From an uncultured Actinomycetes bacterium (GTDB lineage Bacteria > Actinomycetota > Actinomycetes > Streptosporangiales > Streptosporangiaceae): a DNA stretch of 64,000 nucleotides. The translations under genes and the position numbers were made by a program. The stretch's first letter is position 1, and each line of letters begins with the position of its first letter. Of this stretch, positions 26,975 to 48,219 are shown piece after piece. The notes beneath the pieces were generated by a model, which was given only the letters and a program-made list of their open reading frames with translations, had not been told where the DNA came from and made no database searches. The DNA is taken from positions 56,749 through 120,748 of the forward strand of contig CAWBDS010000005.1 in the NCBI GenBank assembly GCA_963787645.1, in the 5' to 3' direction.

Positions 26975-26983
26975 GGCCGCCGC

Positions 26984-27187
26984 CTAGCCGTCGCCGGCTA
27001 TTGGGGAGCCGTCGCCGACCGTCGGGAACCGGACGCCTGCTCGTGGAATCAGCAGGTGGCCCAGGCACCGCCGGTGCCGGGGCGGGGGGTCGATCTCCCG
27101 GCTGGCGACCTCGAACAGGTCGCCGGGTGCCGTCCCGGGCCCGGCCGCTTCCTTCAGGTACAGCCCGCTGCGCTCATTGTGCGGCAT
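26984..27187 (-). CDS. Hypothetical small protein (67 aa) filling the gap between ATP-grasp 1 and the FAD oxidase
   Basis: ATG 27187 overlaps the ATP-grasp stop by 14 nt and the ORF ends 10 nt before the oxidase start. About 85% of third codon positions are G/C by hand count. No family recognised. Confidence 0.4.
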   Translation of the reverse strand: MPHNERSGLYLKEAAGPGTAPGDLFEVASREIDPPPRHRRCLGHLLIPRAGVRFPTVGDGSPIAGDG

Positions 27188-28477: not shown

Positions 28478-28863
28478 GGTGTCGGCGGGCCGTCGTGTCC
28501 GGCGGCGACGTGGCGGGCGGTGAACTTCTCCGACATCTCTGGGTCCCAAAACACGCTGTAGAACTGGAAGTCGGTGGTCCCGGCGTTAATGAGCTGATGG
28601 TTCGTGCCGGGCGGGAAGTGGACGATGTCGCCGGGCAGGAACGGGCTGCGCTCGCCCTCGGCCTCGAGCGCCCCTTCGCCGGAGATCGCGATGAAGATCT
28701 CGTACTCCTGGTGCGCGTGCGGGTCGGTGGCGCCGCCGGGCTCGATGACGCACCACGCGCCCTCGAACGGCGCGTTGAGGGCCGCCCACGGCACCAGGCG
28801 CTGGACGCGGACCCCGTATTCCTCCGGCATGCCGTCGCGGTCAAGCTTGCGGATCTCCATCAC
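28474..28863 (-). CDS. Stand-alone cupin (bicupin motifs 1 and 2 intact)
   Basis: GGATDPHAHQEYEIFIAISG fits G-x5-HxH-x3-E-x6-G and GDIVHFPPGTNHQLIN fits G-x5-PxG-x2-H-x3-N. GTGA/ATG overlap with the N-hydroxylase stop. Confidence 0.9.
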   Translation of the reverse strand: MMEIRKLDRDGMPEEYGVRVQRLVPWAALNAPFEGAWCVIEPGGATDPHAHQEYEIFIAISGEGALEAEGERSPFLPGDIVHFPPGTNHQLINAGTTDFQFYSVFWDPEMSEKFTARHVAAGHDGPPTP

Positions 28864-30191
28864 ACACTCCCGTGGTCAGGCCGCGCTGACGCCGGGTCGT
28901 CGGCGTCTGGTGAACCCCGGCCGGTCTGCTCGCGGTGCGCCAGCAGATCGGCGACGATCTCGCCGGCCCGCACGGCCAGCACACTGATCAGCGAGTCCGC
29001 TATGCCGTGCGTAGCCTCGTTGTTTCCCTGCAGATAACATCCCGCCGTGATGTCCGGCGGGGTGATCATCCGGTAGTGGCGGCTCACCCGGACGTCTCCG
29101 ATACCGCACGCGTCGGCCAGGTCACGGACCAGGCTGGGCGCTCTGGACTCGAAGCCGGTGCCGAGCAGCACCAGGTCGCAGCGCAGTTCGTCCCGGCAGG
29201 CCCGCATCCGGTCGTTGAGCGTGAGCACGATCTCCTCGCCCGCCATCTCGGCCGACTCGATGTCGACCATGGTGACCATGGACAGCCTCTGCTCGCCGGT
29301 CAGCCGCTCCAGGTAGATCTGCCGGAACAGGGTGTTGAGCATATCCGGCGTCACGCCCCCGTAGTTCGTCAGCCGTATGCCCGCCAGCACCTGCTCCCTG
29401 GTCTGCTCGGGGGCGGCGAAGAACTTGTCGGTATAGGAGGGGAAGTACAGCTCGTTGGTGAACTTGCTCGTCTGGTAGTAGTCGAGTCCGGCCGATCTCA
29501 TGATCATCGTGCACCGCGCGCCGGGCAAGCGCTGGTAGATGTCCCACAGCATCTCGGCCGCGCTCTCCGCGGCTCCCACCACCACCACACGGTCGAGTCG
29601 CTGCGGGTCGATCTCGCCGATCTGGCGCAGGTACTCGGTGCTGTGCAGGACGCGCTCCCTGGGCAGCCCGGCGAACGCCGCGGGCACATGCGCGTCGCGG
29701 CCGGCGCCGATCACCAGATTGCGCGCCGCGATCGTCGAGCCGTCCGCCATCCGGGCCAGCCAGCCGTCGGCCACGCCGTCAGCCTGGACGGGCTCGATGC
29801 TCGTGCAGTCCCTGCCGTACTCGACCCGGACCAGCTCCAGCGACTTGGCCGCCCACTGCAGGTAGTCGGAGATCTCCAGCCGGAACGGCAGGAAGCTGGC
29901 CATGTTGATGAAATCGTCCAGCCGGCCGCTGGAGTGCAGATAATTGACAAACGAAAACCGGCTGAGCGGATTGCGCAAGGTGACCAGGTTTTTAAGGAAG
30001 GAGACCTGGCTCTGTGTCCACGGCAGCATCATGCCGCGCTGCCAAACGATGCTCTCGTGCCGCTCGATAACGAGCGTGCTGGACGCTATTTCCGGCGGCG
30101 CCAGTTCCTCGACGGCAACCGCGAAAGCCAGGTTCGAAGGCCCGGCTCCAATGGCGAGAATCTCGACCTCTTGATGAGCCGTCGCCCTCAC
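28860..30191 (-). CDS. Lysine/ornithine N-hydroxylating flavin monooxygenase (SidA/IucD/PvdA family)
   Basis: ILAIGAGPSNLA (FAD site), VVVVGAAESAAE (NADPH site), TGF, and about 440 aa length typical of the family. Confidence 0.9.
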   Translation of the reverse strand: MRATAHQEVEILAIGAGPSNLAFAVAVEELAPPEIASSTLVIERHESIVWQRGMMLPWTQSQVSFLKNLVTLRNPLSRFSFVNYLHSSGRLDDFINMASFLPFRLEISDYLQWAAKSLELVRVEYGRDCTSIEPVQADGVADGWLARMADGSTIAARNLVIGAGRDAHVPAAFAGLPRERVLHSTEYLRQIGEIDPQRLDRVVVVGAAESAAEMLWDIYQRLPGARCTMIMRSAGLDYYQTSKFTNELYFPSYTDKFFAAPEQTREQVLAGIRLTNYGGVTPDMLNTLFRQIYLERLTGEQRLSMVTMVDIESAEMAGEEIVLTLNDRMRACRDELRCDLVLLGTGFESRAPSLVRDLADACGIGDVRVSRHYRMITPPDITAGCYLQGNNEATHGIADSLISVLAVRAGEIVADLLAHREQTGRGSPDADDPASARPDHGSV

Positions 30192-30473: not shown

Positions 30474-31753
30474 CTAGCCGAACGAAGGCCTGACCTTGAC
30501 GGAGATGAGATCCATCGCCGCCTGGGCGACGGCCAGCGCCTGGTCGGCGGTGGACCCCTCGGCCTCTACCGTTATAACGCGGTCGTGCGAGCTGCGCAGC
30601 GGCGGGGCCCGCTCGCCCACCTTGACCTGGATCGAGCAGCCGTGCACGCCGGGCAGGGCCAGCGCCTCCTCGCGGCCGTCGATGCTCGTCACCTCGCCTG
30701 GCGGCACGGCGCCCATCCATACCGCCGCGTAGCGGTCCGTGACCGGCGGCGCGGTCAGATCCCGGTCCAGCATCATGTCGAGGAAGGCGCCGTTGGCGTC
30801 GTAGCCCGAGGCGATGGAGATGAGCTCGATGATTCCGCCGCCCGCCATCCGGCCCGCGCACTCCATCAGGTAGGGCACGCCATCCTCGACCCGCCACTCG
30901 CAGTGCGTCCACCCGCTGTCCAGGCCCACGGCGTCGAGCACACGCACGGTGCCGGTCAGCAGCCGCTCGGTCAGGTCCGCGCTGATGTCGGCCGGATACA
31001 GGTGACCTTGCTCGACCGGACGCGGGCCGTCGAACAGCAGCGTCCTGGTCACGCCGCCGAACGCCATGTGGCCGGAGCGGAACATCATCTCCACGCTGAA
31101 CTCCTCGCCGCGGACGTACCGCTCGGCGAGCATCCGCAGCGGCAGCGGCCGGTCCGGCAGGAAGACGCCCTCTTCCTGGTGGGTGCACTCCAGCCAGGTC
31201 GCGTCGACCTCACCGGGCTCGGAGACGATCTTGGTCCCGATCGCCGCCTGCCGGTTGGCCGGCTTGAGCACGATCGGGCCGCCGATCTCGGCCATGAACG
31301 CCCTGACCTCGGCCGGCCCCTCACCGGTACCGACTCGGGGTTGGCGATGCCCGCGGACCGGGTTATCTGGCGCAGCAGGTGCTTGTCCCGCAGCGCGCGG
31401 GCGGCTCCGTACCCGGCGCCGCGCACGCCGTACCGTTCCGCCAGCCGCGCCGTGAACGGCACGCCGTAGTCGGATACCGGGAGGATGCCGGCCGGCAGGC
31501 GCTGCCGGTTGGCGTTGTAGAAGCGGTCGGCGGCGCCTTCGAGCTCGTACAGCTCCCACCCGATCAACTCCCGCAGCGTCGGGACGTCGGCGGATTCGGC
31601 CACCGCGTCCCGCTTGCGCAGCACGTCCGGTTCGTCGATGAAGACCGCGGAGCCGTCGGGCAGGTACTGGCCCAGGCCCCGCAGCCCGGCGAGCGTCAAG
31701 CCGATGAAGATGACCGACCCGTCGCTGTTCTCCGCAACGCCTACGTTGCCCAT
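30474..31753 (-). pseudogene. ATP-grasp ligase 2, one frame break as assembled
   Basis: MGNVGVAENSDGSVIFIG...RDKHLLRQITRSAGIANPESVPV continues in another frame as (T)GEGPAEVRAFMAEIGGPIVLKP...ECAGRMAGGG. The break is near 31318-31335 and is repaired by adding 1 nt. Confidence 0.8.
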
Positions 31754-33302: not shown

Positions 33303-34337
33303 CTAGTGCAGGCGCACCGAGATGTGCTCTTCGGGGTACGTCGACAGGCCCGGGACCGAAGTCGGCGACGGGTTCTGGATCAGGACGCTGAAGCCGCATT
33401 CCCCGACCGCGTTGCCGCCGACCTTGTTCGGCCCTCCGTTGCTGTCGCCGTACTCCACCGCCGGGTTGTTGCCCGTGCAGACCATGTTGCCGTACACGAC
33501 GTTGTTAATGGCCTCGTTGGCATCGGGCGAGGCCGTGTTGCCGGAGTCGATAAGGCTGCCCCCCACGGTGTTGCGGACAATGCCGTACCAGTTGGTGACC
33601 ATCCCGGTCACGGACATGTTGCCGCCGACCCTGACGTTGGCGTAGTCGCTGTAGGCGGGCAGCGCGATCGGCGCGTCAAGCTGGCCCGGAGCAGCCGGGG
33701 GACCTCCCGGGATGTACTGCGCGAAGATACCGATCGGGACGAAGTTGAGGCCGTCAGGGCCGCCCCCGCCGACCTGGACCACGTTCCCGCGCACCGTCGT
33801 GTTGTGGACCACGGTGCCCGCCGGGTCGTAGGAGAGCAGGTTGCCGCCGATGGTCTCGGTCGCGGCCAGGGTGGCGCCGGTGGTGAAGGCGGTCGCGTCG
33901 TCATCACACGGGAAATCGGGAGTGGTGCCCAGCGCCGGGGGCGGGGCAAACCACAGGGTGACCAGCAGCGGATAGCAGCCGAACAGCACGCTCGCGTCCT
34001 TCTCGACCACCATGTTGCCGCCGACCGAGACGTTCGAGGTGCCCGAATCGGTCTGGTCGTTCATACCGAAATCCGCGACCAGTGACGCGTTCGGCGCGAC
34101 GGTTAGGTTGCCTGCAATGCGGACATTTCCCGCGTCTACCAGGCAGGTGCCGGCAATGGTCACGTTGGCGAAATCGCCGGCCAGCGTGCCGGGTGCAGCC
34201 GAGGTGCCGGTGCAAGTGTAATTGCCGCCGGACCCGATGGGCGCCGCGGCGGCTATCGCGGGAACCGCGGCCACGATGAGGCCGGCTATTCCGGCCGCGC
34301 TCAAAATGCGCGAGACCGATCTAGAGTTCAATCTCAT
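33303..34337 (-). CDS. Secreted protein with GGN-rich beta-helix-like repeats
   Basis: Signal peptide MRLNSRSVSRILSAAGIAGLIVAAVPAIAAAAP, followed by repeated G(G)N.xV/IxG segments and several Cys pairs. No family name recognised. Confidence 0.7.
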   Translation of the reverse strand: MRLNSRSVSRILSAAGIAGLIVAAVPAIAAAAPIGSGGNYTCTGTSAAPGTLAGDFANVTIAGTCLVDAGNVRIAGNLTVAPNASLVADFGMNDQTDSGTSNVSVGGNMVVEKDASVLFGCYPLLVTLWFAPPPALGTTPDFPCDDDATAFTTGATLAATETIGGNLLSYDPAGTVVHNTTVRGNVVQVGGGGPDGLNFVPIGIFAQYIPGGPPAAPGQLDAPIALPAYSDYANVRVGGNMSVTGMVTNWYGIVRNTVGGSLIDSGNTASPDANEAINNVVYGNMVCTGNNPAVEYGDSNGGPNKVGGNAVGECGFSVLIQNPSPTSVPGLSTYPEEHISVRLH

Positions 34338-34371: not shown

Positions 34372-35640
34372 TTATCCGGTGCGGGAAACGGGGGCGGGCT
34401 GGATGATCAGGGCGGCCTGGGCGGCGTCCAGCGCGACCTCGCATTCCGGGGCGGTCGACGTCAGCACGGTGACGAATGCGACCCGGCCGGACATGGTGCC
34501 CTTGGGCGGCGGCGACATGACGTCGCCGGGTCCGGCCAGCGTCACGGCCTGATCGGTTTCCGGTGGCAGGGACGCCGCCTCGAACCGGATCGCCTCGATC
34601 GTGGTGTCGTCCTCGGCGGCGTAGCAGAACTGCACCCCGGCGGCGGCGGACCGGTCTGCTTTCAGCTCCGGGCGCTGCCCGCAGGCGACCGCGGCGGCGG
34701 CCAGGCCCGGGTCGATGCCGCTGGCGCGCATCCCCAGGTAGGGGATGAGATCGCCGCCCAGGCGCGCGTTGACCTCGATGACCTTCGGCCCGTCCGCGGT
34801 CAGCTTGTACTCGGCGTGGGTTATCCCGTCGGTGAAGCCCAGCGCCTCATGCGCGGCCCGCATGACCCGGATGAGCCCGGGATCGGCCAGCAGGGGATCG
34901 GCGGCGTCGACGACGTGGCCGACCTCCTCGAAGTAGGGCGGGTACCCGACCCGTTTGCGGGCCACGAACATCGGCATCAGCTCGCCGTGATAGACCGCCG
35001 AGTCCACGCTGATCTCGGGACCGGGCACGTACTGCTCGACCAGCACGCCCTCGTCGTAGCGCCATGAACCCGGCACCTCGCAGTCGCGCGCGAACTCGAA
35101 TGTCGGGGCCAGGTCGGCCGGGGCGTTGGCGAGCACCACGCCGAGGCTGCCGCCCATCGCCCGCGGCTTCAGCACGACCGGGTAACCCATCTGCCCGGCC
35201 GCGGCGGCCGCTTGGCTTACGCTGGCCACCAGGACCGACCGCGGCTGGGGAACGCCCCCCGCGTCCAGTGCCAGCCTGGTCAGGTGCTTGTCCCGGCAGC
35301 GCATCACCATGTCCGGATCGCCGCCCGGCAGGCCGAGTGCGGCGGCCACCGTGGCTGCCTGGAGGATCCGCGCCTCATCCCAGCTCAGCACGCCCTGGAC
35401 GGACTCGCGGGCGGCAAGTTCGCGGGCTGCCGCGCACATCGCCGTGGCGTCGATGGTGTCGTCCATGTCCAGCACGGTCCAGCCGGCCAGGTAGCCCTTC
35501 GCCCACCCGGGCTCGGCGCCGCAGAGCAGGTGGACGCGGTATCGGGAGGCGACCGAGGCGAGCAGGTACTCGCGGAAGGCCTGCTTGCCCGTCCCGATCA
35601 GCAGCAGTACCGGGCCGTCGGATCTCGTGGGCCCGGTCAC
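34372..35640 (-). CDS. ATP-grasp ligase 3
   Basis: RDKHLTR, GYPVVLKP, EQYV.G.E.SV, EVNARLGG motifs. GTG 35640 forms a GTGA overlap with the MetRS-paralog stop. Confidence 0.85.
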   Translation of the reverse strand: MTGPTRSDGPVLLLIGTGKQAFREYLLASVASRYRVHLLCGAEPGWAKGYLAGWTVLDMDDTIDATAMCAAARELAARESVQGVLSWDEARILQAATVAAALGLPGGDPDMVMRCRDKHLTRLALDAGGVPQPRSVLVASVSQAAAAAGQMGYPVVLKPRAMGGSLGVVLANAPADLAPTFEFARDCEVPGSWRYDEGVLVEQYVPGPEISVDSAVYHGELMPMFVARKRVGYPPYFEEVGHVVDAADPLLADPGLIRVMRAAHEALGFTDGITHAEYKLTADGPKVIEVNARLGGDLIPYLGMRASGIDPGLAAAAVACGQRPELKADRSAAAGVQFCYAAEDDTTIEAIRFEAASLPPETDQAVTLAGPGDVMSPPPKGTMSGRVAFVTVLTSTAPECEVALDAAQAALIIQPAPVSRTG

Positions 35641-37034
35641 GACCGCCCCGACAGCGCGGCCAGCGGCGCCGAGTCGGCCCCGGCCCCGGCGGTCAGCGCC
35701 AGCACCAGGCACCGGGTGGCCAGCGCGGAGTCGAACCCGCTCAGCTGCAGCGCCCGCGCTGCCCGCTCCAGCTCGGCCGCGGCCAGCTCGGCCGGCAGCA
35801 GGCCGGCCGACGGTGCCGCCCCGGCCAGCAGCGGCCGCACGTAGTCGCAGAATGCGCGGTAGGACTCCCGAGTGAAGTTGCTCTCGTACCGGTCCGGCCG
35901 GTCCCAGGACAGGTATAGCCGGACCAGCTCACGGTCCTCCTCGGCCAGGAACTCATCCGCCCACAGCGCGTGGTTGCGGCTGGTGGAGAACTTCAGCCCG
36001 TCCAGCAGGTAGAGCTCGTTCACGGTGGCGCCGCGCAGCAGCGGCCGCGTCACTCCCGCCGCGGCCAGGATCGCCGGGTAGAGGACTGCGAAGTAGAACG
36101 TGTTGTCGATGCCGTTGAAGTGCCAGACGCCGTCCACCTCGTGCCAGGCCTCGACCCGCCGGGCCAGGGTGTCCGCGCTGGGGTCCAGGGCCAGGGCCGG
36201 CCCGTAGAGATAGCTCAGGCCGAGCTCGGTGGGGAAATCGACCCGCAGCCCGGACAGCTCGCCGTCGCACTCGATGCCCCAGTTGGTCGGGTAGGCGACG
36301 GGATAGTCGGGGAGCGGCACCCGCAGGTAGTGCGCCAGTGCCGCCCGGACCCGCCCCGGCAGGTCGGCCTGCTGCCACTCCGCGACCAGCTGCGCTCGGT
36401 AGTCTTCCAGCGGCAGGACCGGCACCGTGACCTGCATCGGGCGCAGCGCGCCGCCGCACCGGGCGCAGCTGGCGTCGACGAGCAGCTCGGCGGAGGTGAA
36501 CCCGCCGCAGGGCTCGCAGGACAGCCCGTTCGCCCCGGCGCCGCAGATCGGGCACTTGCCGACCACGTAGGAGTGGTGCATGGTGCGACCGCAGTCCGCG
36601 CACGCGTGCAGCGTGACCTCGCGCATGCTGATGCTGCCCGCGGCGATGAGCTCGGTCAGCATGCCGGTGACGGCGCGCTGGAACGCGTCGTCTTCCGGGT
36701 CGAGGAACACGTCGTAACCGATGCCCGCCAGCTCGAATGCCGTGGTGATCTGGGTCCGGAACCCCCTGACCATCTCGTTGACGTCGACCCCGAGGTTCTC
36801 CGCCTTGGTCAGCACGTAGTTGGGGTGCACGTCGACGCCGGCCAGGGTAAGCACCCGGTCCCCCCGGGCTCGCGCCGCGCGCGAGGCAACGTCGGCGGCC
36901 AGGTACGGGCCGGACAGGTGCCCGATGTGCAGCGGGCCGTTGACCGTGGGCTGCGGAATGACAATAACGGTCACTCCAGGCTGCTTGGTCACCAATTTGT
37001 CCGCCGGTTCTGGGTAAGGCGAAACGTGCGACAC
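35637..37034 (-). CDS. Methionyl-tRNA-synthetase-like (class I aaRS catalytic core) paralog with a short C-terminus
   Basis: NGPLHIGHLSG (HIGH) and LKFSTSRN (KMSKS variant). Four Cys pairs (CADCG, CPICG, CEPCG, CARCG) match MetRS zinc knuckles. Only about 100 aa follow KFSTS. Start uncertain (GTG 37034, GTG 36992 or 37082). Confidence 0.85.
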   Translation of the reverse strand: MSHVSPYPEPADKLVTKQPGVTVIVIPQPTVNGPLHIGHLSGPYLAADVASRAARARGDRVLTLAGVDVHPNYVLTKAENLGVDVNEMVRGFRTQITTAFELAGIGYDVFLDPEDDAFQRAVTGMLTELIAAGSISMREVTLHACADCGRTMHHSYVVGKCPICGAGANGLSCEPCGGFTSAELLVDASCARCGGALRPMQVTVPVLPLEDYRAQLVAEWQQADLPGRVRAALAHYLRVPLPDYPVAYPTNWGIECDGELSGLRVDFPTELGLSYLYGPALALDPSADTLARRVEAWHEVDGVWHFNGIDNTFYFAVLYPAILAAAGVTRPLLRGATVNELYLLDGLKFSTSRNHALWADEFLAEEDRELVRLYLSWDRPDRYESNFTRESYRAFCDYVRPLLAGAAPSAGLLPAELAAAELERAARALQLSGFDSALATRCLVLALTAGAGADSAPLAALSGRS

Positions 37035-37431
37035 TGCATTCCCGCTCCTACTCCTTTCCCGTTGACCCAGGCAGAACGCCACGAAGGGCTCGGCGAACCG
37101 CTGGCCAATGGCAGGCTCCGACGGTGGTGAGGTGGGCGGCGCGAGGCGAGTATACGGCTGCCTACCCGAGCGGGCTAGACCCCCGCGGTTCGTTCAAGTC
37201 CGAGGAGTACCCGAGTAGATGTCACCTATCAGTCACTGACAGTAGTGAAAGTCGCCGGAGCAGCGGGAAATGGGTGGCGGCCGATCCACGCAACGGTCAC
37301 GGAGCCCGCGGTGCGCCTGCCGGGTGAGGAAATCGGGCATTGCGGCGCTGCCGGACGGAATATAGCCTTGGGCTCGTGGCCCGTCGCCGTATGCGGCGCC
37401 AGCCGACAGCGGGCGACGGCCGGAGGTCCCG
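37035..37431. promoter_or_regulatory. Divergent control region of the two biosynthetic operons
   Basis: About 400-bp lower-G+C non-coding gap between the minus-strand MetRS-paralog gene and the plus-strand methyltransferase gene. Contains the short palindrome CAGTCACTG. No promoter hexamers could be assigned confidently. Confidence 0.4.
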
Positions 37432-38163
37432 TTGAGCGAGGGTCATTCTTCCCGCGATGCCGCGGCCGTCTCGATGTGGGATGAGGCTTATGGCCCGGCG
37501 CACCTGAAAGACCAGCAGAACCTGTGGGGCGATCCGCCCGTGCCTTACGCCGCGCGGGCTGCTGCTGCCTTCGCGGCCAATTCTTCCCGGCTGGTAATTG
37601 ACCTGCCGTGCGGTGACGGGCGCAATCTCGCCCCCCTGACGGAGGGCACGTCCATCCTGCTCGGCGCCGATACCTCGGTGCAGGCGATGACGATCGCGGA
37701 AAGGGTGGCGGCCCGTGCGGGAATTGCCGCCATGACCGTCTTCCTGCGCATGGACGTCTTCGATACGGGCCTGCTCGACAACTCTGTCGACGGCATTTTC
37801 TGCTGGGATCTGCTCGGGCACCTGAGAAATGTCTCGGACGCGCTGCGGGAACTTTACCGGGTGATCAGGCCGGGTGGCATCATCGTCGCCAACATGTGGA
37901 CGATGAATGACTGCCAGACATCTGATCCGGACATCAGGCAGATCGGCCCGAAAGAATACATCGACCATTTCGATTTTTACTGCAGATTCTACGATCAGGA
38001 TGACCTCGGCACGCTGCTGAATGCTACCGGGATAAGCGCGGAATCGGTTGAGGTCAGTGCCTGGACCGAGCCCGCGCACGCCGACTACCGGACCTATGAG
38101 CATGACCATGAGAGCCTGGCCTTCACGATCAGGAAGGGCGTGGATGAGCACCAGGCTCGGTGA
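37432..38163 (+). CDS. Class I SAM-dependent methyltransferase
   Basis: VIDLPCGDGRN (motif I), DGIFCWDLLGH, LRPGG. TTG 37432 is preceded by GGAGG at 5 nt; the alternative start is ATG 37474. Confidence 0.8.
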   Translation: MSEGHSSRDAAAVSMWDEAYGPAHLKDQQNLWGDPPVPYAARAAAAFAANSSRLVIDLPCGDGRNLAPLTEGTSILLGADTSVQAMTIAERVAARAGIAAMTVFLRMDVFDTGLLDNSVDGIFCWDLLGHLRNVSDALRELYRVIRPGGIIVANMWTMNDCQTSDPDIRQIGPKEYIDHFDFYCRFYDQDDLGTLLNATGISAESVEVSAWTEPAHADYRTYEHDHESLAFTIRKGVDEHQAR

Positions 38164-39124
38164 GCCCAGGTCGGCCGAAGCCGAGTTGGCGGCGCCCGGA
38201 TTCAGCGCGGGCGTCGGCTCGGCGATCGCCCATCACGGCGAGTTGCTCCAGGGTGTGTTCGATGACGGCGCGGGTCGGCTGCGCCGCGCGCTGGTGACGA
38301 TGCCGCTGCCCGGCCGGGGCAGCCGGGCGGTGTTCTACCCGAGCCAGAGCCACTGGGGCGTGGTGGGGCCGGCCGGGCTGACCAAGGCCAGGCGCGCGGC
38401 CATCTACGCGCTGCGTGAGTTCTCCGGGCACCCGTCGCCGGCCAAGGGCGGCCGGGTGGAGATCACCAGCAGCGTCCCGCACGGTATCGGCATGGGCTCC
38501 TCGACCAGCGACGTCGCCGCGGTCATCCGGGCGGTGGCCGACTATCACGGCGTGACCCTGTCCCGGGAGGAGGTCGGCCGGCTCGCGGTGCTGGCCGAGG
38601 TAGCCGCGGACTCAGTGATGATCGACGACCGCGTGGTCCTGTTCGCCCACCGGGACGGGCTGGTGCTCGAGACGTTCGGGCACCAGCTGCCACCCATGGT
38701 CGTGGTCGGCTGTGACACGGCGCCCGGCCAGGTCGTCGAGACGCTGGGCCTGCCGCCCGCCGACTACAGCGACAAGGAGGCCGGGGAGTTCCAGGTGCTG
38801 CGCGGAGCGCTGCGCCGGGCCATCGCCACGGAGGACGTCGCCCTGCTCGGCAAGGTCGCGACGGCCAGCGCGCGGATCAACCAGCGCTACCTGCCCAAGC
38901 CGGGCCTGGAGGCGCTGATCGAGCTGTGCGTGCGGCATGGCGGCGCCGGCCTGCAGATCGCCCACAGCGGCACCGTGGCCGGGCTGATCTTCGACGCCCG
39001 GCACCCGCGCATGGGCATCGAGGGCTGCGTGCTGCGGATCAAGGAGCTCGGGTTCGAGGTGACCGATGTCATCGAGCCCGCGCACGCCCCGGCGCTGCGC
39101 GCGGCGCACCGCACGGCCTCATGA
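38144..39124 (+). CDS. GHMP-family kinase, PduX (L-threonine kinase)-like
   Basis: HHGELLQG, SSVPHGIGMGSSTSDVAA (GHMP motif II), LPKPGLEALIEL......GLQIAHSGTVAGLIFD; colinear with Salmonella PduX as I recall it. Confidence 0.8.
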   Translation: MSTRLGEPRSAEAELAAPGFSAGVGSAIAHHGELLQGVFDDGAGRLRRALVTMPLPGRGSRAVFYPSQSHWGVVGPAGLTKARRAAIYALREFSGHPSPAKGGRVEITSSVPHGIGMGSSTSDVAAVIRAVADYHGVTLSREEVGRLAVLAEVAADSVMIDDRVVLFAHRDGLVLETFGHQLPPMVVVGCDTAPGQVVETLGLPPADYSDKEAGEFQVLRGALRRAIATEDVALLGKVATASARINQRYLPKPGLEALIELCVRHGGAGLQIAHSGTVAGLIFDARHPRMGIEGCVLRIKELGFEVTDVIEPAHAPALRAAHRTAS

Positions 39125-40191
39125 GCGTCCGCGGCAGCTTTGCCGAGGCGACCGACGCCTATCAGCTGCCCAGGCTTATCCGGCTCGGCCCGAATCTGTA
39201 CGCGGCCTGCTTCACGCTGATGAAGATGGTTCCCGCCCGGTTCATCCTGCGCCGGGCCGCGGAGCGGGGAATGCTGGAGCCCGGGACCGTCATCGTCGAG
39301 ACGACCTCGGGCACCTTTGGCCTGGCGCTGGCCATGCAGGCCGTGCACATGGACCGCCAGCTGATCCTGGTCGGCGATCCCGTCATCGACGAGCGCCTGT
39401 ACCGCAGGCTGACCGACCTCGGCACCGTCGTCGAACGGGTCAGCGCGGAGGCGGGCCGGATACCCGGCGGGTACCAGGCCGCCCGGCTGCAGCGGCTCGA
39501 GGCCATCATGGCCGATCTCGACGCCGCCTTCTGCCCCTGGCAGTACTCGAACCCGGATAACCCGCGCGCCTATGCCACGGTGGCCGAATACTTCCTGGAG
39601 TGCCTCGGCCAGGTCGACTGCATCGTCGGGCCGGTGGGGTCGGGCGGCTCGATGTGCGGGACTGTCACCCACGTCCGGGCGCTGCTGCCCGAATGCCGCG
39701 CCGTCGGCGTCGACAGCCATTCCAGCGTGCTGTTCGGCCATCCCGATGGTCCCCGCGAGCTGCGCGGCATGGGCATGAGCCTGATGCCGGACAACCTGGA
39801 TCACCGGGTCTTCGACCAGGTGCACTGGACCGCTCCCGCGCCTGCCTACCAGGCGACCCGCCAGCTGCACCAGCGGCACGCCCTGTTCATGGGGCCGTCG
39901 AGCGGCGCGGCCTACCTGGCCGCGCGCTGGTGGGCCGGCGCGAATCCGGACGCCCTGACCGTCGTGATGATGCCGGACGAGGGATACCGCTACCAGGACA
40001 CCGTTTACGACGACGCCTGGCTGGCCGGCCGCGGCCACCTGGATGAGCCGCTGCCCGCCGAGCCCGTCATGGTCTCAGATCCGGCCCGGCCGGCCGGCTC
40101 CTGGATGGCGTTCGACTGGGCCAGGCGCTCTTACGCCGACGCCATGTCGCGGCCGCTATCGTCGGCGGCCGCCGACGGTGAGCCGTCGTGA
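39121..40191 (+). CDS. Fold-type II PLP-dependent enzyme (cysteine synthase/CBS/SbnA-like family)
   Basis: ETTSGTFGLALA, GPVGSGGSMCG (phosphate-binding loop), GPSSGAAY. ATGA overlap with the kinase stop. Confidence 0.8.
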   Translation: MSVRGSFAEATDAYQLPRLIRLGPNLYAACFTLMKMVPARFILRRAAERGMLEPGTVIVETTSGTFGLALAMQAVHMDRQLILVGDPVIDERLYRRLTDLGTVVERVSAEAGRIPGGYQAARLQRLEAIMADLDAAFCPWQYSNPDNPRAYATVAEYFLECLGQVDCIVGPVGSGGSMCGTVTHVRALLPECRAVGVDSHSSVLFGHPDGPRELRGMGMSLMPDNLDHRVFDQVHWTAPAPAYQATRQLHQRHALFMGPSSGAAYLAARWWAGANPDALTVVMMPDEGYRYQDTVYDDAWLAGRGHLDEPLPAEPVMVSDPARPAGSWMAFDWARRSYADAMSRPLSSAAADGEPS

Positions 40192-41639
40192 CCGGGACCG
40201 GCCGCCTGACCGGTGAACTCGGCCTGCGTACCCGCCGGGTGGTGTACGGCGAGCCGACCCAGGCCGAGCTGGCGGCCGAGCTCGCGCTGATGATCCGCGT
40301 CGACCAGGCCCACCTGGTCATGCTGGCCGAGCAGCAGCTGATCCAGCCAGCGTCCGCGGCCTGCCTGCTAGCCTGCATGGACGAGCTGGCCGCCGGGCAG
40401 TTCAGCGCGCTGCGATCACGGCCCGCGCCGCGCGGGCTCTACCTGTGCTACGAGGGCTACCTGATCGAGCGGCTGGGCCCGGACATCGGCGGGGTGCTGC
40501 ATTCCGGCCGGTCCCGCAACGACCTGAAGGCCACCATCACGGCGCTGCGGCTGCGCGACTGGCTGCTGGAATTCGCCGGTCAGGCGGTCCGGCTCGAGGC
40601 CATCTTGCTGTCCCGCGCGCGGGCCCACGCGGGCGTGGTCATGCCCGCCTACACCCACTTCCAGGCCGCGATGCCGATCAGCTACGGCTACTACCTGCTC
40701 GGCGTGGCCACCGCGGTGGGCCGCGAGATCGACGCGCTCGCCTCGGCCAGTTCCGGGCTGGCGCGGTGTCCGCTCGGCGCGGGCGCGGTGGCCGGCACCG
40801 ATCTGCCCATCAACCCGGAGCGAACCGCGCGGCTGCTCGGCTTCACCGCCGCTACCCGGCACGCGCTTGATGCCGTGGCCAGCCGGGACGTGCCGCTGCG
40901 GCTGCTGGCCTGCGCCGCCAGCCTGGCTGTCGTGCTGAGCAGGTTCGGCACCGACCTGCAGCTGTGGAGCACCGCCGAGTTCGGCTTCATCGACTTTCCC
41001 GACCGCCTGGTGGGCGGCAGCTCGGCCATGCCGCAGAAGCGCAACGCCTTCCTGCTCGAGCACGTCAAGGCGAAGGCAGGCCACGTCACCGGTGCCTGGG
41101 CGGCCGCGGCCGGCATGATGACGGCGGCGCCGTTCACCAACTCGATCGAGGTGGGCACCGAGGCCATGGCCGCCGTCTGGCCCGGGCTGGGCGCCGCCAT
41201 GGACTCCGTCCTGCTCACCCAGGTGCTGGTCAGCGGGGCGAGGCCGGTGCCCGACCGGATGCGGCAGCGGGCAGCCGAGGCGTTCACCGCAGCCACCTGG
41301 CTGGCCAACCGCCTGGTGCGGCAGGGTGTCCCGTTCCGCACCGCCCACCACATGGTGGGCGACGCGGTCCGCCAGGCGGTGGCGGCAGGCTCGACCCAGC
41401 TGGCCGACTTCGGCCCGCCGGGCTGGCTGGACGGGATCGACGAGGCGCGCCTCGACCTCGCGGACTTGGTGCGCGTGCACTCGGCCGGCGGCGGCCCCGG
41501 CGCGTTCACCGGGGCGTTCGCCGATAGCCAGTGCCGGTGGACGGCGCACCGGGACTGGGTCTCCGGCCAGCAGCAGGCCACGCGCGAAGCCGGCGCCGCG
41601 CTCGCCGCGGCGGCCGGACGGCTGAAGGACCGCGGATGA
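40188..41639 (+). CDS. Argininosuccinate-lyase-like enzyme (fumarase/aspartase superfamily)
   Basis: SGRSRNDL, THFQAAMP and the signature GSSAMPQKRN. GTGA overlap with the upstream stop. Confidence 0.85.
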   Translation: MTGTGRLTGELGLRTRRVVYGEPTQAELAAELALMIRVDQAHLVMLAEQQLIQPASAACLLACMDELAAGQFSALRSRPAPRGLYLCYEGYLIERLGPDIGGVLHSGRSRNDLKATITALRLRDWLLEFAGQAVRLEAILLSRARAHAGVVMPAYTHFQAAMPISYGYYLLGVATAVGREIDALASASSGLARCPLGAGAVAGTDLPINPERTARLLGFTAATRHALDAVASRDVPLRLLACAASLAVVLSRFGTDLQLWSTAEFGFIDFPDRLVGGSSAMPQKRNAFLLEHVKAKAGHVTGAWAAAAGMMTAAPFTNSIEVGTEAMAAVWPGLGAAMDSVLLTQVLVSGARPVPDRMRQRAAEAFTAATWLANRLVRQGVPFRTAHHMVGDAVRQAVAAGSTQLADFGPPGWLDGIDEARLDLADLVRVHSAGGGPGAFTGAFADSQCRWTAHRDWVSGQQQATREAGAALAAAAGRLKDRG

Positions 41640-42868
41640 GCGGTGCGTGGCTGGTGCTCGTGGAAAGCAACACCACCGGGTCCGGACGGCTGTTCTGCGA
41701 CTGCGCCCGGCGCCTCGGCCTGCGGCCGGTGCTGATCGCCCGTGACCCGGCGCGCTACCCCTACGTGGCGGCTGACCAGGTGGAGCACCGGGTAGCCGAC
41801 ACCGCCTCCGCGGCGGCCGTGCTGGCCGCCTGCCGCGGCCTGGGCGGCGTGGTCGCCGGTGTCACCAGCAGCTCGGAGTACTTCATCGCCACCGCCGCCG
41901 AAGTGGCCCGCTCCCTCGGACTGCCTCACCCGGCGCCGGATGCGGTCCGGGCCTGCCGCGACAAGCACGCCCAGCGCATCACCTTGAGCGCCGCGGGCGT
42001 ACCCTGCCCGCCGTTCGCGGCCGCCCGCTCACCGGAGGAGGCCGCGGCGGCGGCCGCGCGGGTCGGATACCCGGTCGTGGTCAAGCCGGCCTCCGGCACC
42101 GGGTCGATCGCGGTGCGCCTGTGCCACGACAGCGCCCAGGTCCGGGCCGCGGCCGCCCATGCCTTCGCGGCGCCGGATCCCGCGCTCCCGCGGCAGGAGA
42201 CCGTCTTGGTCGAGGGTTACCTGACCGGCACCGAGTACTCGACCGAGCTGATCGACGACCAGGTGGTCGGGGTCACCAGGAAGCTGCTCGGCCGCGAGCC
42301 GTACTTCGTCGAGACCGGCCACGACTTCCCCGCTCCGCTGCCCGGAGCCACGCGCGCGGCCCTGAGCCGGTTGGCGGTGGCCGCGGTACGCGCCCTCGGC
42401 CTGGGCTGGGGCGGCGCCCATGTCGAGCTCCGCTACTCCGCCGCCGGGGTCCCGTGCGTGGTCGAGGTCAACCCCAGGCTGGCCGGTGGCATGATCCCGC
42501 GCGCGGTCCAGGAGGCGACCGGCGTCGACATGATCTTCCACGTGGTGGCGGCCGCGGCGGCCCGGCCGGAACCGCTGCGGCCCCGGCCGGGCCGGGCCGC
42601 GTCGATCCGCTTCCTGGTGGCCGGCCAGGAGGGCACGCTGACCGGGATCCGCGGCACGGCCGAGGCCCGGCGGGTGCCGGGTGTCGTCGAGGTGGGCATC
42701 ACCGCCCAGGTCGGCCAGCACGTGGTGCCGCGCCACTCGTTCCGGGACAGGCTCGGTTACGTGATCGCGGCCACGGACGACGGCGAGCAGGCCGCGCGGT
42801 CGGCCGAGGCGGCCCTGGCCCTGCTGGCTGCCCAGATCACCCCGGTCACGGCGGGAATGCCGTCATGA
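41636..42868 (+). CDS. ATP-grasp ligase 4
   Basis: RDKHAQR, GYPVVVKP, EGYL.G.EYS.E, EVNPRLAGG. ATGA overlap with the lyase stop. Confidence 0.85.
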   Translation: MSGAWLVLVESNTTGSGRLFCDCARRLGLRPVLIARDPARYPYVAADQVEHRVADTASAAAVLAACRGLGGVVAGVTSSSEYFIATAAEVARSLGLPHPAPDAVRACRDKHAQRITLSAAGVPCPPFAAARSPEEAAAAAARVGYPVVVKPASGTGSIAVRLCHDSAQVRAAAAHAFAAPDPALPRQETVLVEGYLTGTEYSTELIDDQVVGVTRKLLGREPYFVETGHDFPAPLPGATRAALSRLAVAAVRALGLGWGGAHVELRYSAAGVPCVVEVNPRLAGGMIPRAVQEATGVDMIFHVVAAAAARPEPLRPRPGRAASIRFLVAGQEGTLTGIRGTAEARRVPGVVEVGITAQVGQHVVPRHSFRDRLGYVIAATDDGEQAARSAEAALALLAAQITPVTAGMPS

Positions 42869-44697
42869 CCAGATCGGTGGCGATCATCGGACTCGGCTCG
42901 CGCGGGCTCGGCGTGCTGGAGCGGATCGCAGCGCTGGCCGGCCCCGGCGAGGTCACGGTCAAGGTCATCGACCCGGCCTGCACGGGCGCGGGCGTGCACG
43001 ACACCGCCCAGCCCGACTATCTGTTGCTCAACACCACCTGCAGTCAGGTTTCGATGTTCCCCGACCGGCTCAGCGTGGGCTCGGGCCCCGCGGCCCGCGG
43101 CCCGAGCCTGCACGAGTGGGCGGCCTCCCGCGGCCTGCGCCTGGCGCCCGACGGATTCACCGTCGGCACGGAAGGCCGGGACCTGCGGCCCACCGACTTC
43201 CTGCCCCGGCGGCTGCTCGGCGAGTACCTGTCCTGGTGCTTCGGGCAGCTCCGCGGCACGCTGCCTGGCCGGCTGGTCACGCACCGGGCCGAGGCGGTCG
43301 ATATCTCCTCCGCTGACGGCGGCGGGCTGCGCATCGCTCTGGCCGACGGCACCAGCGTGGCCGCCGACTTCGCGTTCCTGACCACGGGCTACACCGGCAA
43401 CGCGAACCCGCAGGCCGACGGCCTCATCGGCGGGCCCTACCCGCTGCCGGGGCGGCTCGCGGCGATCGGGCCCGGGCAAACGGCGGCCATCGGCGGCTTT
43501 GGGCTGTCAGCGATGGACATCATCTCCTGTCTGACCGTGGGCCGTGGCGGCAGGTTCCGCCGGGACCAGGGCGACGTCGAGTACCTCCCGGGCGGCGGCG
43601 AGCCGACGGTCCTGCTGTACTCGAGGTCGGGTATCCCGTGCCGCGCCCGCCCGCTGGTCACCCGGCTCGAGATCAGCTATGACGCCCTGGTGTTCACCCC
43701 GGCCGCGGTCGACGAGCTGCGGGAGCAGCGTGGCGGCCCGCACTGCCCGCTCGACTTCGAGGCCGACGTCATGCCGCTGATCCTGATCGAGATGCGGATC
43801 GCCTACCGCCGCTGCCAGGCCCGGTGCACCGGCCCCGAGGCCGAGCAGGCCTTGGTAGCCGAGCTGCGGGGTGCGCCCGCGGCGGCCGTGGCCGCCCGGC
43901 TCGACGAGCTCGACGCGCGGGCTGGCCGGTTCGACGCTGCCGCGGCCTTCGCCGGCGCCGCCGGCCTCAGGCTGGACGACGGTGCTGCCTACCAGCGCTG
44001 GTTCGCCGATACGCTGCGCCGCGACCTCGGCGAGGGCGTGGTCGGTCTGGCCTGGAGCCCGGTCAAGGCCGCGCTGGACATCCTGCGGGAGGCGCGCGAC
44101 ACGGTCCGGTACGTCGCCGACTTCGGCGGGCTGACCGAATCCTCCGCGCACGACTTTTACCGGCGCATCGTGCCGCTGATGAACCGCGCCGTGGTGGGGC
44201 CGCAGTACGAGAGGCACGCCGAGTTGCTCGCGCTGATGGCTGCCGGGCTGGTCCAGGTCCCGTTCGGCCCCGCGCCCGCCATCGGCTGGAACGGCCGGTG
44301 CTGGACGCTCCGGTCCACCAGGCTCGGCCGACCCGAGCGACGCGAGGCCGACTGGCTGGTACCGGCGCAGGTCCCGCTGCCCGGCGTGGACTGCTCGGCC
44401 AGCCCGCTGCTGGCCACGCTGGCCCGCAAGGGATGGATCAGGCCGTCCCGGCCCGGCAGCCGCCTGGTCCCCGGCATCGACGTGGACCGCGACCAGCATC
44501 CGCTGGACGCGGCCGGCCGGCCGAATCGGCGGATCTGGGTCCTCGGCCCGCTGTGCGAGGGCGCGACGTTCTACAACAACCTGGTCCCCTCGCCCGGCGT
44601 GTACTCGCGCCCGGTCGCCGACGCGCACCGGTGCGCCGCCGCAATGCTCGCGGCCCACGTGCCCGCCGACAGCATCCCGGCCGGCTCTCAGGGCTGA
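42865..44697 (+). CDS. FAD/NAD(P)-binding protein (YdhS-like, PF13454-type oxidoreductase)
   Basis: N-terminal VAIIGLGSRGLGVLERI dinucleotide fold and a second GFGLSAMD site; about 610 aa. ATGA overlap with the ATP-grasp 4 stop. Confidence 0.75.
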   Translation: MTRSVAIIGLGSRGLGVLERIAALAGPGEVTVKVIDPACTGAGVHDTAQPDYLLLNTTCSQVSMFPDRLSVGSGPAARGPSLHEWAASRGLRLAPDGFTVGTEGRDLRPTDFLPRRLLGEYLSWCFGQLRGTLPGRLVTHRAEAVDISSADGGGLRIALADGTSVAADFAFLTTGYTGNANPQADGLIGGPYPLPGRLAAIGPGQTAAIGGFGLSAMDIISCLTVGRGGRFRRDQGDVEYLPGGGEPTVLLYSRSGIPCRARPLVTRLEISYDALVFTPAAVDELREQRGGPHCPLDFEADVMPLILIEMRIAYRRCQARCTGPEAEQALVAELRGAPAAAVAARLDELDARAGRFDAAAAFAGAAGLRLDDGAAYQRWFADTLRRDLGEGVVGLAWSPVKAALDILREARDTVRYVADFGGLTESSAHDFYRRIVPLMNRAVVGPQYERHAELLALMAAGLVQVPFGPAPAIGWNGRCWTLRSTRLGRPERREADWLVPAQVPLPGVDCSASPLLATLARKGWIRPSRPGSRLVPGIDVDRDQHPLDAAGRPNRRIWVLGPLCEGATFYNNLVPSPGVYSRPVADAHRCAAAMLAAHVPADSIPAGSQG

Positions 44698-46860: not shown

Positions 46861-47050
46861 CTAACCGTCCAAGGACGCGTTCCGCGTTGGCGTGGAAGAC
46901 GAGGTCCATGACGGACTGATCGTAACCGAGTTCGTCCCACTCCCGCAGGATGCGCTCTTAGGGCAGGCTCGGGTGGTCGCTGCCGAACATGATCTTCTCG
47001 CGCAGCCGCCCCCGGATGTCGGTGCGCAGCGAGGGTGGGAAGTACTGCCG
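46861..47050 (-). pseudogene. C-terminal fragment of an amidohydrolase with an in-frame TAA
   Basis: ...REKIMFGSDHPSLP*ERILREWDELGYDQSVMDLVFHANAERVLGRL; the TAA is at 46948-46950. No N-terminal part is present. Confidence 0.55.
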
Positions 47051-48113
47051 AACCCGGACAGCGGCAGCGAATCCAGCACCTCGATCCGCTCCGGCAGCTT
47101 GAACCTGGCCATCTCGAACCCGGCCAGGAACGTCACCAGCTCGGCCAGCGACAAGGAAGACCCGGGGCGCAGCACCACGCAGGCGCACATCCGCTCCCCG
47201 AGCCGGATCCGGATACGGCACGCAGGCCACGTTGAGCACCGCTTCGTGGCCCAGGATGAGGTTCTCCGCCTCCTCGGGTCGGCCGCACGTCTCCCGGCGC
47301 ACCGCGGGCGGGTCGGACGAGCGCACGAACATGATCAGCCCCTCGGCCATGCCGAAGTTCTCCTGGATGAAGCAGCCGGGCAGGGCGCGCTCGGCGCGCA
47401 GCCGGACTTCGGGCTGCAGCCGCTGCCCGCCGCTCTGGATGACGCGCAGCGACGACAGGTCATAAGACGTGATCGACGGATCGTCGATCCAGCGGATCAG
47501 CAGCGCGGGCACCAGGTGGATGGGGGTGACCCGGTGCCGCTAGATGAGCTCGAACACGTCCCGCGGCCGGGTGCTGGTGCCGAGCACCACGGTCCCGCCG
47601 GACAGCAGGAAGCCCTGCAGGGCCGGGGCAGCCGAGCGGCAGGTTGTGCTCGATGACCAGCTCGTCCAGCGCCGCGCGGCTCGACCTGGGCGAGCGGGCG
47701 AGCAGGTCTTCCAGCCGCACGAAGCGCGGGTCGTTCGGCCGAAAATCAAGACCCTGGACCAGGCAGAGCCCGCAGGTCCGGGCGGTCGGTCAGGAGGTCG
47801 GCGGCCATGGCGGTGAAGTCGAAGCCGCGCGCGGCGGCCGGGACGGCCAGGCCACCGCGCCCGATATCGACGCGAACTGGCCGATCTCCCGCCCGCGGTG
47901 CCCGGGCAGGGCCAGCACCGGGCACGCCCCGATCCGCTGCAGCGCCAAGTACAGGTAGGCGAACCCGGCGGTGTTCGGCAGCTGGACGATGACCCGGTCC
48001 AGCGGGCGCAGGCCGAGATCCAGCAGCACCCGGGCCAGCCGCTCCGCGTGCTCGAAAAGCTCCCGGTAGCGCGCCGCGAACTCAGCCGGGACCGGCGTCA
48101 CTCCGTCAAGCAC
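47040..48113 (-). pseudogene. Decayed (2,3-dihydroxybenzoate)-AMP ligase (EntE/DhbE-like): several frame changes, stops and internal deletions
   Basis: Fragments in three frames: GVTPVPAEFAARYRE...DRVIVQLPN...ALQRIGACPVLALPGHR; FLLSGGT; LVPALLIRWIDDP..YDLSSLRVIQSGGQRL...FGMAEGL; CACVVLRPG..LSLAELVTFL...ARFKLPERIEVLDSLPL. Confidence 0.7.
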
Positions 48114-48219
48114 AGCGGACCCCGGGCGCCGACACGCGGCTAGCTTAACGCTCCGTTAATCTGCGCCCCGGGGCCAGGACTAGGCTGGAGACCGGCACTT
48201 CCGGGTAAAGGGGCTGTCG

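Follow-up and report, generated by a model that had tools for sequence, protein, structure and literature searches.

The window analyzed here, a stretch of 64,000 nucleotides from an uncultured bacterium of the Streptosporangiaceae (GenBank assembly GCA_963787645.1, contig CAWBDS010000005.1), carries on its plus strand a gene for a PduX-family kinase (38144–39124) followed by a gene for a pyridoxal 5′-phosphate (PLP) enzyme of fold type II (39121–40191). We propose that the two enzymes are likely to catalyze the first two steps of a DabABC-type route from threonine to 2,3-diaminobutyrate (Dab), judging from the sequences of the two proteins and of their neighbors. A first-pass annotation of the same DNA had suggested that the pair may be a stand-alone two-gene module that phosphorylates a hydroxy-amino acid and replaces the phosphate with a nitrogen nucleophile, conceivably hydrazine or hydroxylamine made by another operon. 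It was probably right about the chemistry and wrong about the nucleophile and the boundaries of the module, as genes for a lyase and an ATP-grasp protein that it overlooked are translationally coupled downstream.

The reference for this route is dabABC of Burkholderia thailandensis E264 (Li et al. 2024, PMC10906522), where DabA is a PduX-like L-threonine kinase and DabB is a cysteine-synthase-family PLP enzyme that forms an aminoacrylate-type intermediate from O-phospho-threonine or O-phospho-serine and accepts L-aspartate, but not L-glutamate, as the nucleophile. The UV-vis absorbance of DabB moves from 405 nm to 320 and ~445 nm with its O-phospho substrates, and the Asp adduct was seen as a trimethyl ester at m/z 277.14. 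DabC, an ATP-grasp domain fused to an argininosuccinate-lyase domain, converts the adduct into (2S,3R)-2,3-diaminobutyrate and fumarate, and its domains are separate or differently fused in other Dab operons, namely those of friulimicin, pacidamycin and napsamycin (PMC10906522). Like DabABC and the Dab operons of friulimicin, pacidamycin, napsamycin and mureidomycin, the window has a PduX-like kinase, a PLP enzyme, a lyase and an ATP-grasp protein in one operon. It differs from DabABC in that the lyase and the ATP-grasp protein are separate, an arrangement reported for other Dab operons, in that the lyase gene comes before the ATP-grasp gene, and in its setting, a cluster free of nonribosomal peptide synthetases (NRPS) that holds a hydrazine synthetase, several ATP-grasp ligases, a methyltransferase and a CreE-like hydroxylase.

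By analogy with the Burkholderia pathway, the kinase would use ATP to phosphorylate the β-hydroxyl of L-threonine, giving O-phospho-L-threonine, from which the PLP enzyme, carrying its cofactor as an internal aldimine on K35, would eliminate phosphate to form an aminocrotonate-PLP intermediate. The same enzyme would add the α-amino group of L-aspartate at Cβ to yield N-(1-amino-1-carboxy-2-propyl)aspartate, and the co-translated lyase of the ArgH clade would strip fumarate from this adduct to release 2,3-diaminobutyrate. The ATP-grasp protein would be the counterpart of the N-terminal domain of DabC. The methyltransferase and the CreE-like hydroxylase would probably modify the diamino acid further, and it would probably then be handed to the hydrazine synthetase, to the ATP-grasp ligases of the divergent operon or to both, this handover being speculative.

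We infer threonine and aspartate as substrates, and the product, from homology with the Burkholderia pathway and from the presence of an ArgH-clade lyase, which needs an N-substituted aspartate; the sole obvious source of such a compound would be β-addition of aspartate by the PLP enzyme, as in DabB. Fumarate removal from an N-substituted aspartate suits a lyase of this clade, which makes L-aspartate the likely nucleophile and points to a vicinal diamino acid as the likely product. The nitrogen nucleophile is most likely aspartate rather than hydrazine because the PLP-lyase-ATP-grasp trio also occurs in loci without hydrazine genes, and since a cell can make O-phosphoserine with no kinase dedicated to it, threonine is favored over serine. 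The β-replacement on a phospho-amino acid that had been proposed earlier is supported by the mechanism of DabA and DabB (PMC10906522), by the architecture of the operon and by residues K35, R122 and Y142 of the PLP enzyme, whereas the lyase and the trio without hydrazine genes argue against a hydrazine or hydroxylamine nucleophile.

Both open reading frames (ORFs) lie where the first-pass annotation had placed them. The kinase ORF has a coding-type G+C content at third codon positions (GC3) of 0.94 and encodes a protein of 326 residues, a predicted DabA-like L-threonine kinase that matches GHMP_kinases_N and GHMP_kinases_C in Pfam. The motifs on which its colinearity with PduX had been based are all present (GELLQG at residues 32–37, GMGSSTSDVAA at 116–126, LPKPG at 250–254 and AHSGTVAGL at 273–281), and in an alignment with annotated Salmonella enterica PduX, with 29% identity over 270 residues and a pairwise E value of 3e-16, GELLQG, GMxSSTxD and KPG...AHSG are in register. 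The annotated PduX came from coding sequences labeled "pduX: L-threonine kinase PduX" in a plasmid collection, to which a Salmonella PduX sequence used to find them is 95% identical. The PduX-type L-threonine-kinase motifs expected of the kinase in a DabABC cassette (GELLQG, GMGSSTSD and KP...HSGT) are conserved. Close homologs of the kinase bear the JGI label "uncharacterized protein involved in propanediol utilization", which we read as the PduX cluster of orthologous groups, and the kinase is 46–50% identical to those of kinase-PLP-ATP-grasp-lyase cassettes on Azospirillum, Paraburkholderia and Streptomyces plasmids.

The start of the kinase gene is uncertain by 14 codons, as the ATG at 38144 runs 20 nucleotides into the upstream methyltransferase ORF and an alternative in-frame TTG lies at 38186. 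A scan of the kinase against NCBIfam returned no PduX-specific match, and a PDB sequence search returned weak matches to mevalonate kinases only. The AlphaFold2 model was poor (predicted local distance difference test score, pLDDT, 66), and its Foldseek neighbors were generic members of the GHMP superfamily at a template modeling (TM) score of ~0.33, which is silent on the substrate. Two other assignments were considered and rejected. Threonine synthesis of the ThrB/ThrC type does not fit, as the kinase reaches only 24 bits with the thrB model and the PLP enzyme belongs with CysK and SbnA rather than with ThrC. A pairing such as that of PduX with CobD in cobalamin synthesis shares the kinase family and motifs, but the identity to PduX is only 29%, the partner in the window is a fold-type-II enzyme and not the CobD decarboxylase, and no cobalamin genes were found among the cluster genes scanned with Pfam.

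The PLP-enzyme ORF (GC3 0.91, coding-type) encodes 356 residues with a Pfam PALP match of 1.7e-30, and we assign the product as a probable β-replacement enzyme of the DabB-like, SbnA-like type. The GSGGSMCG loop noted earlier is at residues 173–180. SbnA, the PLP enzyme of staphyloferrin B synthesis, is its closest PDB sequence match (1.3e-33, ~32% identity over the aligned region), and the four top-ranked structural neighbors of its AlphaFold2 model (pLDDT 89) in the PDB are all SbnA, with TM scores of 0.76–0.86, which confirms the fold. The first-pass annotation had suggested comparing the Schiff-base lysine and the phosphate-binding residues with those of SbnA and CysM; in SbnA, Arg132, Tyr152 and Ser185 are reported to determine O-phosphoserine binding (PMC12414870). 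K35 (codon 39223–39225) occupies the position of the Schiff-base Lys47 of SbnA and does not vary among 41 homologs; it lies near the N-terminus, as does the Schiff-base Lys40 of DabB. The phosphate-binding residues agree in part: R122 corresponds to Arg132 and Y142 to Tyr152, and G173 stands where SbnA has Ser185. The substrate loop reads ETTSGTFG in place of the ESTSGNLG of SbnA (Asn to Thr), and five residues are absent immediately before K35, leaving the signature FTLMK. Our alignment of the 41 homologs, which spans actinomycete loci with and without hydrazine genes and two proteobacterial plasmids, together with SbnA, showed K35, the TSGTF loop, R122, Q141-Y142 and GPVGSGGS to be invariant. 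The subfamily further differs from SbnA in having a conserved C-terminal extension (40027–40191, residues ~303–356), which contains invariant P315, P321, W328, W333, R335 and R336 and is predicted with high confidence to about residue 340.

The window has ~72% G+C, and its reading frames are clear from third-position GC. The stop codon of the kinase gene (TGA, 39122–39124) overlaps the start codon of the PLP gene (ATG, 39121–39123) as ATGA, as had been noted earlier, and every junction in the series kinase, PLP enzyme, lyase, ATP-grasp protein and flavoprotein is a four-nucleotide stop/start overlap of the form ATGA or GTGA. The gene order, this translational coupling, the domain families and the catalytic residues are all present in the window, and the four-gene unit from kinase to ATP-grasp protein is kept in several unrelated contexts.

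The lyase gene (40188–41639, plus strand), which overlaps the PLP gene as GTGA, encodes a protein of the argininosuccinate-lyase clade (Lyase_1, ASL_C2) equivalent to the C-terminal domain of DabC. It scores 287 bits with TIGR00838 argH, above the cut-off of 279.5, and its PDB matches are ArgH and delta-crystallin at 1e-58 to 1e-42, the next member of the superfamily following at 3e-13; the motifs GSSAMPQKRN and THFQ (THxQ) are intact in the window and in every hydrazine-type ortholog. The ATP-grasp protein (41636–42868, plus strand; ATP-grasp_4, LAL_C2), of the L-amino-acid-ligase type and joined to the lyase gene by an ATGA overlap, is equivalent to the N-terminal domain of DabC. In PRK02186, the NCBIfam model of an 890-residue fusion protein, the ATP-grasp protein covers positions 5–396 (346 bits) and the lyase positions 411–882 (424 bits). 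Likewise, an 898-residue fusion protein of Rhizobium gallicum is matched by the ATP-grasp protein over residues 1–407 (38% identity, 2e-70) and by the lyase over residues 443–848 (41% identity, 7e-88). The window thus holds in one operon, in split form, the two domains that are fused in DabC. The first gene of the plus-strand operon (37432–38163) encodes a class I S-adenosylmethionine-dependent methyltransferase (Methyltransf_11, _25, _12) and lies directly 5′ of the kinase gene in all hydrazine-type relatives. An Rfam scan of the whole window gave no match.

Relatives of the locus were collected by searching public genomes with the PLP enzyme (36 loci) and from homolog look-ups (5 loci), and all were compared with the window proteins. 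About 27 non-redundant loci share the order methyltransferase-kinase-PLP-lyase-ATP-grasp-(tRNA-deacylase-like gene)-flavoprotein, with the cassette paired with a hydrazine-synthetase set and L-amino-acid ligases. These hydrazine-type loci come mostly from metagenome-assembled Actinomycetota (Streptosporangiaceae, Jatrophihabitans, Pseudonocardiales, Frankiaceae and others) and from two cultured Longispora strains, sp. K20-0274 (locus L026) and sp. NPDC051575 (locus L032), and their kinases and PLP enzymes are 60–88% identical to those of the window. The kinase gene is immediately 5′ of the PLP gene, overlapping it by 1 or 4 nucleotides in all but one of them; because adjacency and overlap are kept across these loci, the pairing is above chance.

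A further 11 loci in Streptomyces, Nonomuraea, Amycolatopsis and Micromonospora have the PLP-lyase-ATP-grasp trio without the methyltransferase, flavoprotein or hydrazine genes, at identities to the window of 59–71% for the PLP enzyme, 59–67% for the lyase and 48–67% for the ATP-grasp protein. On an annotated Streptomyces plasmid in this group, an NRPS adenylation gene and a kinase gene come after the trio, and some related loci (Nonomuraea, Amycolatopsis) have no kinase within the fetched flanks. The order is kinase-PLP-ATP-grasp-transporter-lyase on an Azospirillum plasmid and kinase-PLP-ATP-grasp-lyase on a second Streptomyces plasmid. In R. gallicum, a kinase-like ORF annotated as "hypothetical protein" and the PLP enzyme precede the 898-residue fusion, annotated as "lyase family protein". 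Wherever the PLP gene occurs among the relatives, NRPS-linked and proteobacterial loci without hydrazine genes included, lyase and ATP-grasp genes occur with it, and because the kinase, PLP enzyme, lyase and ATP-grasp protein are kept in NRPS-linked and plasmid contexts, we regard them as a mobile unit independent of the hydrazine genes.

PLP homologs fused to a GNAT acetyltransferase domain and adjoining a PduX-like kinase were noted as well (locus L044, 7983–9608; proteins P0121–P0198); they occur in Paraburkholderia, Cupriavidus and Mesorhizobium and are frequently encoded on symbiosis plasmids. A search with the Paraburkholderia phymatum homolog returned rhizobial and Paraburkholderia fusions, and L044, the single PLP-GNAT locus inspected, has no annotated lyase in its vicinity. 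The kinase-PLP module seems to exist here in another form, one that has apparently not been described.

Several points weigh against the assignment to a DabABC-type route. The likeness to DabA, DabB and DabC of B. thailandensis was drawn from architecture, motifs and uncharacterized homologs, DabA and DabC have been characterized in vivo only (PMC10906522), and identity to the proteobacterial cassettes is just 30–54%. The best NCBIfam model for the PLP enzyme, the SbnA family TIGR03945, scores 200.5 bits, under its cut-off of 349.95, and the enzyme is also below the curated cut-offs of cysK (124 versus 351 bits) and cysM (88 versus 394 bits) and well under that of the CBS model. It also carries family-specific changes, namely the Asn-to-Thr loop, the Gly in place of Ser185 and the C-terminal extension. 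In addition, a different nucleophile or hydroxy-amino acid is possible because the cassette of this cluster type is always flanked by the methyltransferase and the CreE-like hydroxylase and lies opposite the hydrazine synthetase.

If the hydroxy-amino acid were serine, the same cassette and chemistry would convert O-phospho-L-serine, made by the kinase or drawn from the cell, into L-2,3-diaminopropionate (L-Dap). DabB accepts O-phosphoserine, DabB and DabC give L-Dap without the kinase (PMC10906522), and the loci without a kinase in their fetched flanks fit such a use. The kinase of the window is what makes this version unlikely, as it belongs to the PduX family of L-threonine kinases, and O-phosphoserine is already a primary metabolite, so that a tightly coupled, dedicated kinase would be needless for Dap. 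A dedicated threonine kinase is indeed present in Dab producers and not in Dap producers in the survey of PMC10906522.

The nucleophile proposed in the first-pass annotation would lead instead to a β-hydrazino or β-aminooxy amino acid, the phosphate being replaced by a hydrazine or hydroxylamine from the divergent operon. Enzymes of the cysteine-synthase family accept varied nucleophiles, and the cassette is linked to a complete hydrazine-synthetase set in ~27 relatives. With hydrazine as the nucleophile, however, the co-translated ArgH-type lyase, which is strictly conserved and catalytically intact by its motifs, would be left without a substrate or a role. Active-site differences from the NRPS-linked homologs would also be expected, and the 41-homolog alignment shows none at the conserved positions: PLP enzymes of this subfamily, their invariant active-site residues unchanged, also stand beside lyase and ATP-grasp genes where hydrazine genes are absent. 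DabB, moreover, uses L-Asp (PMC10906522). A hydrazine nucleophile is therefore the less economical reading, and we consider it quite unlikely.

The last gene of the coupled series (42865–44697, plus strand; 610 residues, PF13454), which overlaps the ATP-grasp gene as ATGA, encodes a homolog of the CreE/FzmM family of flavin N-hydroxylases with an altered pocket. Its full-length match to the L-aspartate N-hydroxylase 8CP2 from Streptomyces sp. V2 (E = 3e-57), and the presence of a fumarate-lyase-superfamily gene in the same operon, could suggest an aspartate-nitrosuccinate pathway of the CreD/CreE type, in which lyase and flavoprotein would supply nitrite and the kinase/PLP pair would serve an unrelated step. 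In L-aspartate N-hydroxylase, Asp is bound by Arg13, Arg276, Asn413, Arg416 and Arg577, and the N413E mutation kills aspartate hydroxylation (PMC10404684). The window flavoprotein does not have this full set: R13 and R415 are kept, the position of Arg276 falls in an alignment gap, and every one of 24 orthologs has Asp or Glu in place of Asn413 and Ser in place of Arg577. Because of these two changes, the flavoprotein is probably not an aspartate hydroxylase. The acidic residue in its pocket hints, speculatively, at a substrate that bears an additional amino group, for example Dab, and the protein may accept a basic compound, for instance the diamino acid. The lyase, for its part, is found with the PLP and ATP-grasp genes in loci that lack the flavoprotein and belongs to the ArgH clade, with no nitrosuccinate-lyase structure among its PDB matches. 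Given a lyase that occurs without the flavoprotein and Asp-binding residues that are only partly kept, a CreD/CreE pair is very unlikely.

A route of the SbnA/SbnB type, from O-phosphoserine and L-glutamate with NAD-dependent cleavage, or ordinary cysteine synthesis, is scarcely credible: SbnA gives the best NCBIfam model and the best structural match, but the scores lie far under the SbnA, CysK and CysM cut-offs, no SbnB-type dehydrogenase was found among the cluster genes scanned, DabB-type enzymes reject glutamate (PMC10906522), and the kinase and the lyase would go unexplained. Likeness to SbnA/SbnB of staphyloferrin B, and to CmnB/CmnK and VioB/VioK, which make L-Dap from O-phosphoserine and L-Glu, extends to the phosphate-activated substrate and, for SbnA, to the PLP fold, the nearest solved structure and the retained Schiff-base Lys and O-phosphoserine-binding Arg and Tyr. 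The window differs in having a lyase and a kinase in place of the SbnB-type dehydrogenase, a TSGT rather than TSGN loop and Gly rather than Ser185. The Pfam scan of the cluster genes showed neither an NAD-dependent dehydrogenase of the SbnB/ornithine-cyclodeaminase type nor an O-acetyltransferase gene.

As a further instance of a 2,3-diaminobutyrate route worked out in 2024, the gene pair itself adds little, and it is the setting of the DabABC-type cassette that is new. We tentatively suggest, with rather more reserve than for the route itself, that soil Actinomycetota harbor a large, undescribed family of clusters for hydrazine or hydrazide peptides, free of NRPS, and that the cassette is its amino-acid-supplying arm. 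The diamino acid, maybe N-methylated and maybe N-oxygenated by the CreE-like hydroxylase, would be the partner of the cupin/MetRS-like hydrazine synthetase, and ATP-grasp ligases would build the resulting Dab-derived N-N compound into a small peptide. In text searches of the literature, no paper came up in which a hydrazine synthetase and a 2,3-diaminobutyrate cassette occur together. Dab can now be named as a likely building block of a conserved cluster type, present in dozens of mostly uncultured soil actinomycetes, in which enzymes for N-N bond formation are joined by several L-amino-acid ligases and a re-tuned homolog of aspartate hydroxylase; we found no product or paper for this cluster type. 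The analysis also shows the Dab cassette as a mobile unit used outside NRPS pathways and provides a testable substrate hypothesis for a new CreE-like subfamily.

Among described clusters, that for fuscazine (Fuz) in Microbispora fusca comes closest to the cluster as a whole. There, a hydrazine cassette acts on a non-canonical amino acid made by the cluster and two ATP-grasp ligases build a hydrazide tripeptide, with an AlaX-type tRNA deacylase as protection for the host (Millar et al. 2026, PMC13149037). The two clusters share the lysine N-monooxygenase, cupin, flavin oxidoreductase and MetRS-like cassette (MetRS, methionyl-tRNA synthetase), ATP-grasp ligases and an enzyme set for a non-canonical amino acid, which is built around an arginine hydroxylase in fuscazine and is the Dab cassette in the window. 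The AlaX-type deacylase of fuscazine has counterparts in many relatives of the window cluster, but not in the window. A putative deacylase gene of the AlaX/tRNA_SAD type lies between the ATP-grasp and flavoprotein genes in L003 (13817–14557), L005 (13757–14500) and ~10 other relatives, and in the window the two genes meet at a direct ATGA junction (42865–42868). The AlaX-like gene would suit a cluster producing an amino-acid analogue that can enter translation, as Dab, being an analogue of threonine, might. A second gene of the relatives without a homolog in the window encodes a 451-residue protein with no Pfam match (L001, 15721–17076, with homologs in ~12 relatives).

The hydrazine genes run divergently on the minus strand. 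An N-monooxygenase, a cupin, a MetRS-like protein and a DAO-family oxidoreductase make up the known hydrazine-forming cassette (PMC2922099, PMC13149037), and all four are co-located here by domain content. The MetRS-like half of the hydrazine synthetase (35637–37082; tRNA-synt_1g, 2.3e-47) has orthologs of 67–88% identity beside the cassette in relatives. The lysine/ornithine-type flavin N-monooxygenase (28860–30191; PF13434, 3.4e-84) is followed by the cupin, the N-N bond-forming partner of the MetRS-like protein (28474–28860; Cupin_2, 9e-17), and by a DAO-family FAD oxidoreductase (25970–26983; PF01266, 1.6e-23; 54% identity to the DAO protein of L005), which performs the hydrazine-releasing step in known cassettes. 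The N-monooxygenase is only 24–27% identical to those of the otherwise syntenic clusters L001 (4566–5852) and L005 (3326–4609), against 60–75% for other proteins, and a second group of relatives has N-monooxygenases 61–82% identical to that of the window. From these identities, a non-orthologous replacement of the hydroxylase seems to have occurred among the relatives, along with a shifted cupin position and a different DAO arrangement.

Three ATP-grasp proteins are encoded on the same strand: a ligase conserved in relatives (34372–35712; ATP-grasp_4) and two L-amino-acid ligases (27174–28367, with ATP-grasp_4 and LAL_C2, and 30474–31753, with ATP-grasp_4 and LAL_C2 on its C-terminal part). 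The last of these has one frameshift near 31316–31319, as an intact 429-residue ortholog (L005, 17652–18941) matches it over residues 4–142 and 142–422 in different frames; this is either an assembly error or a true pseudogene. Two MFS transporters are also among the divergent genes, as is a 344-residue protein with a signal-peptide-like N-terminus and no Pfam match (33303–34337), whose homologs (45–69% identity) occur in six relatives only, including the closest ones, L006, L007 and L039. Farther along the minus strand, short ORFs at 46958–47539 and 47790–48155 resemble, as judged by eye, fragments of an adenylate-forming enzyme (AMP-binding, DhbE-like); with the intervening sequence out of frame or degraded, the region 46958–48155 may be a gene remnant just outside the cluster.

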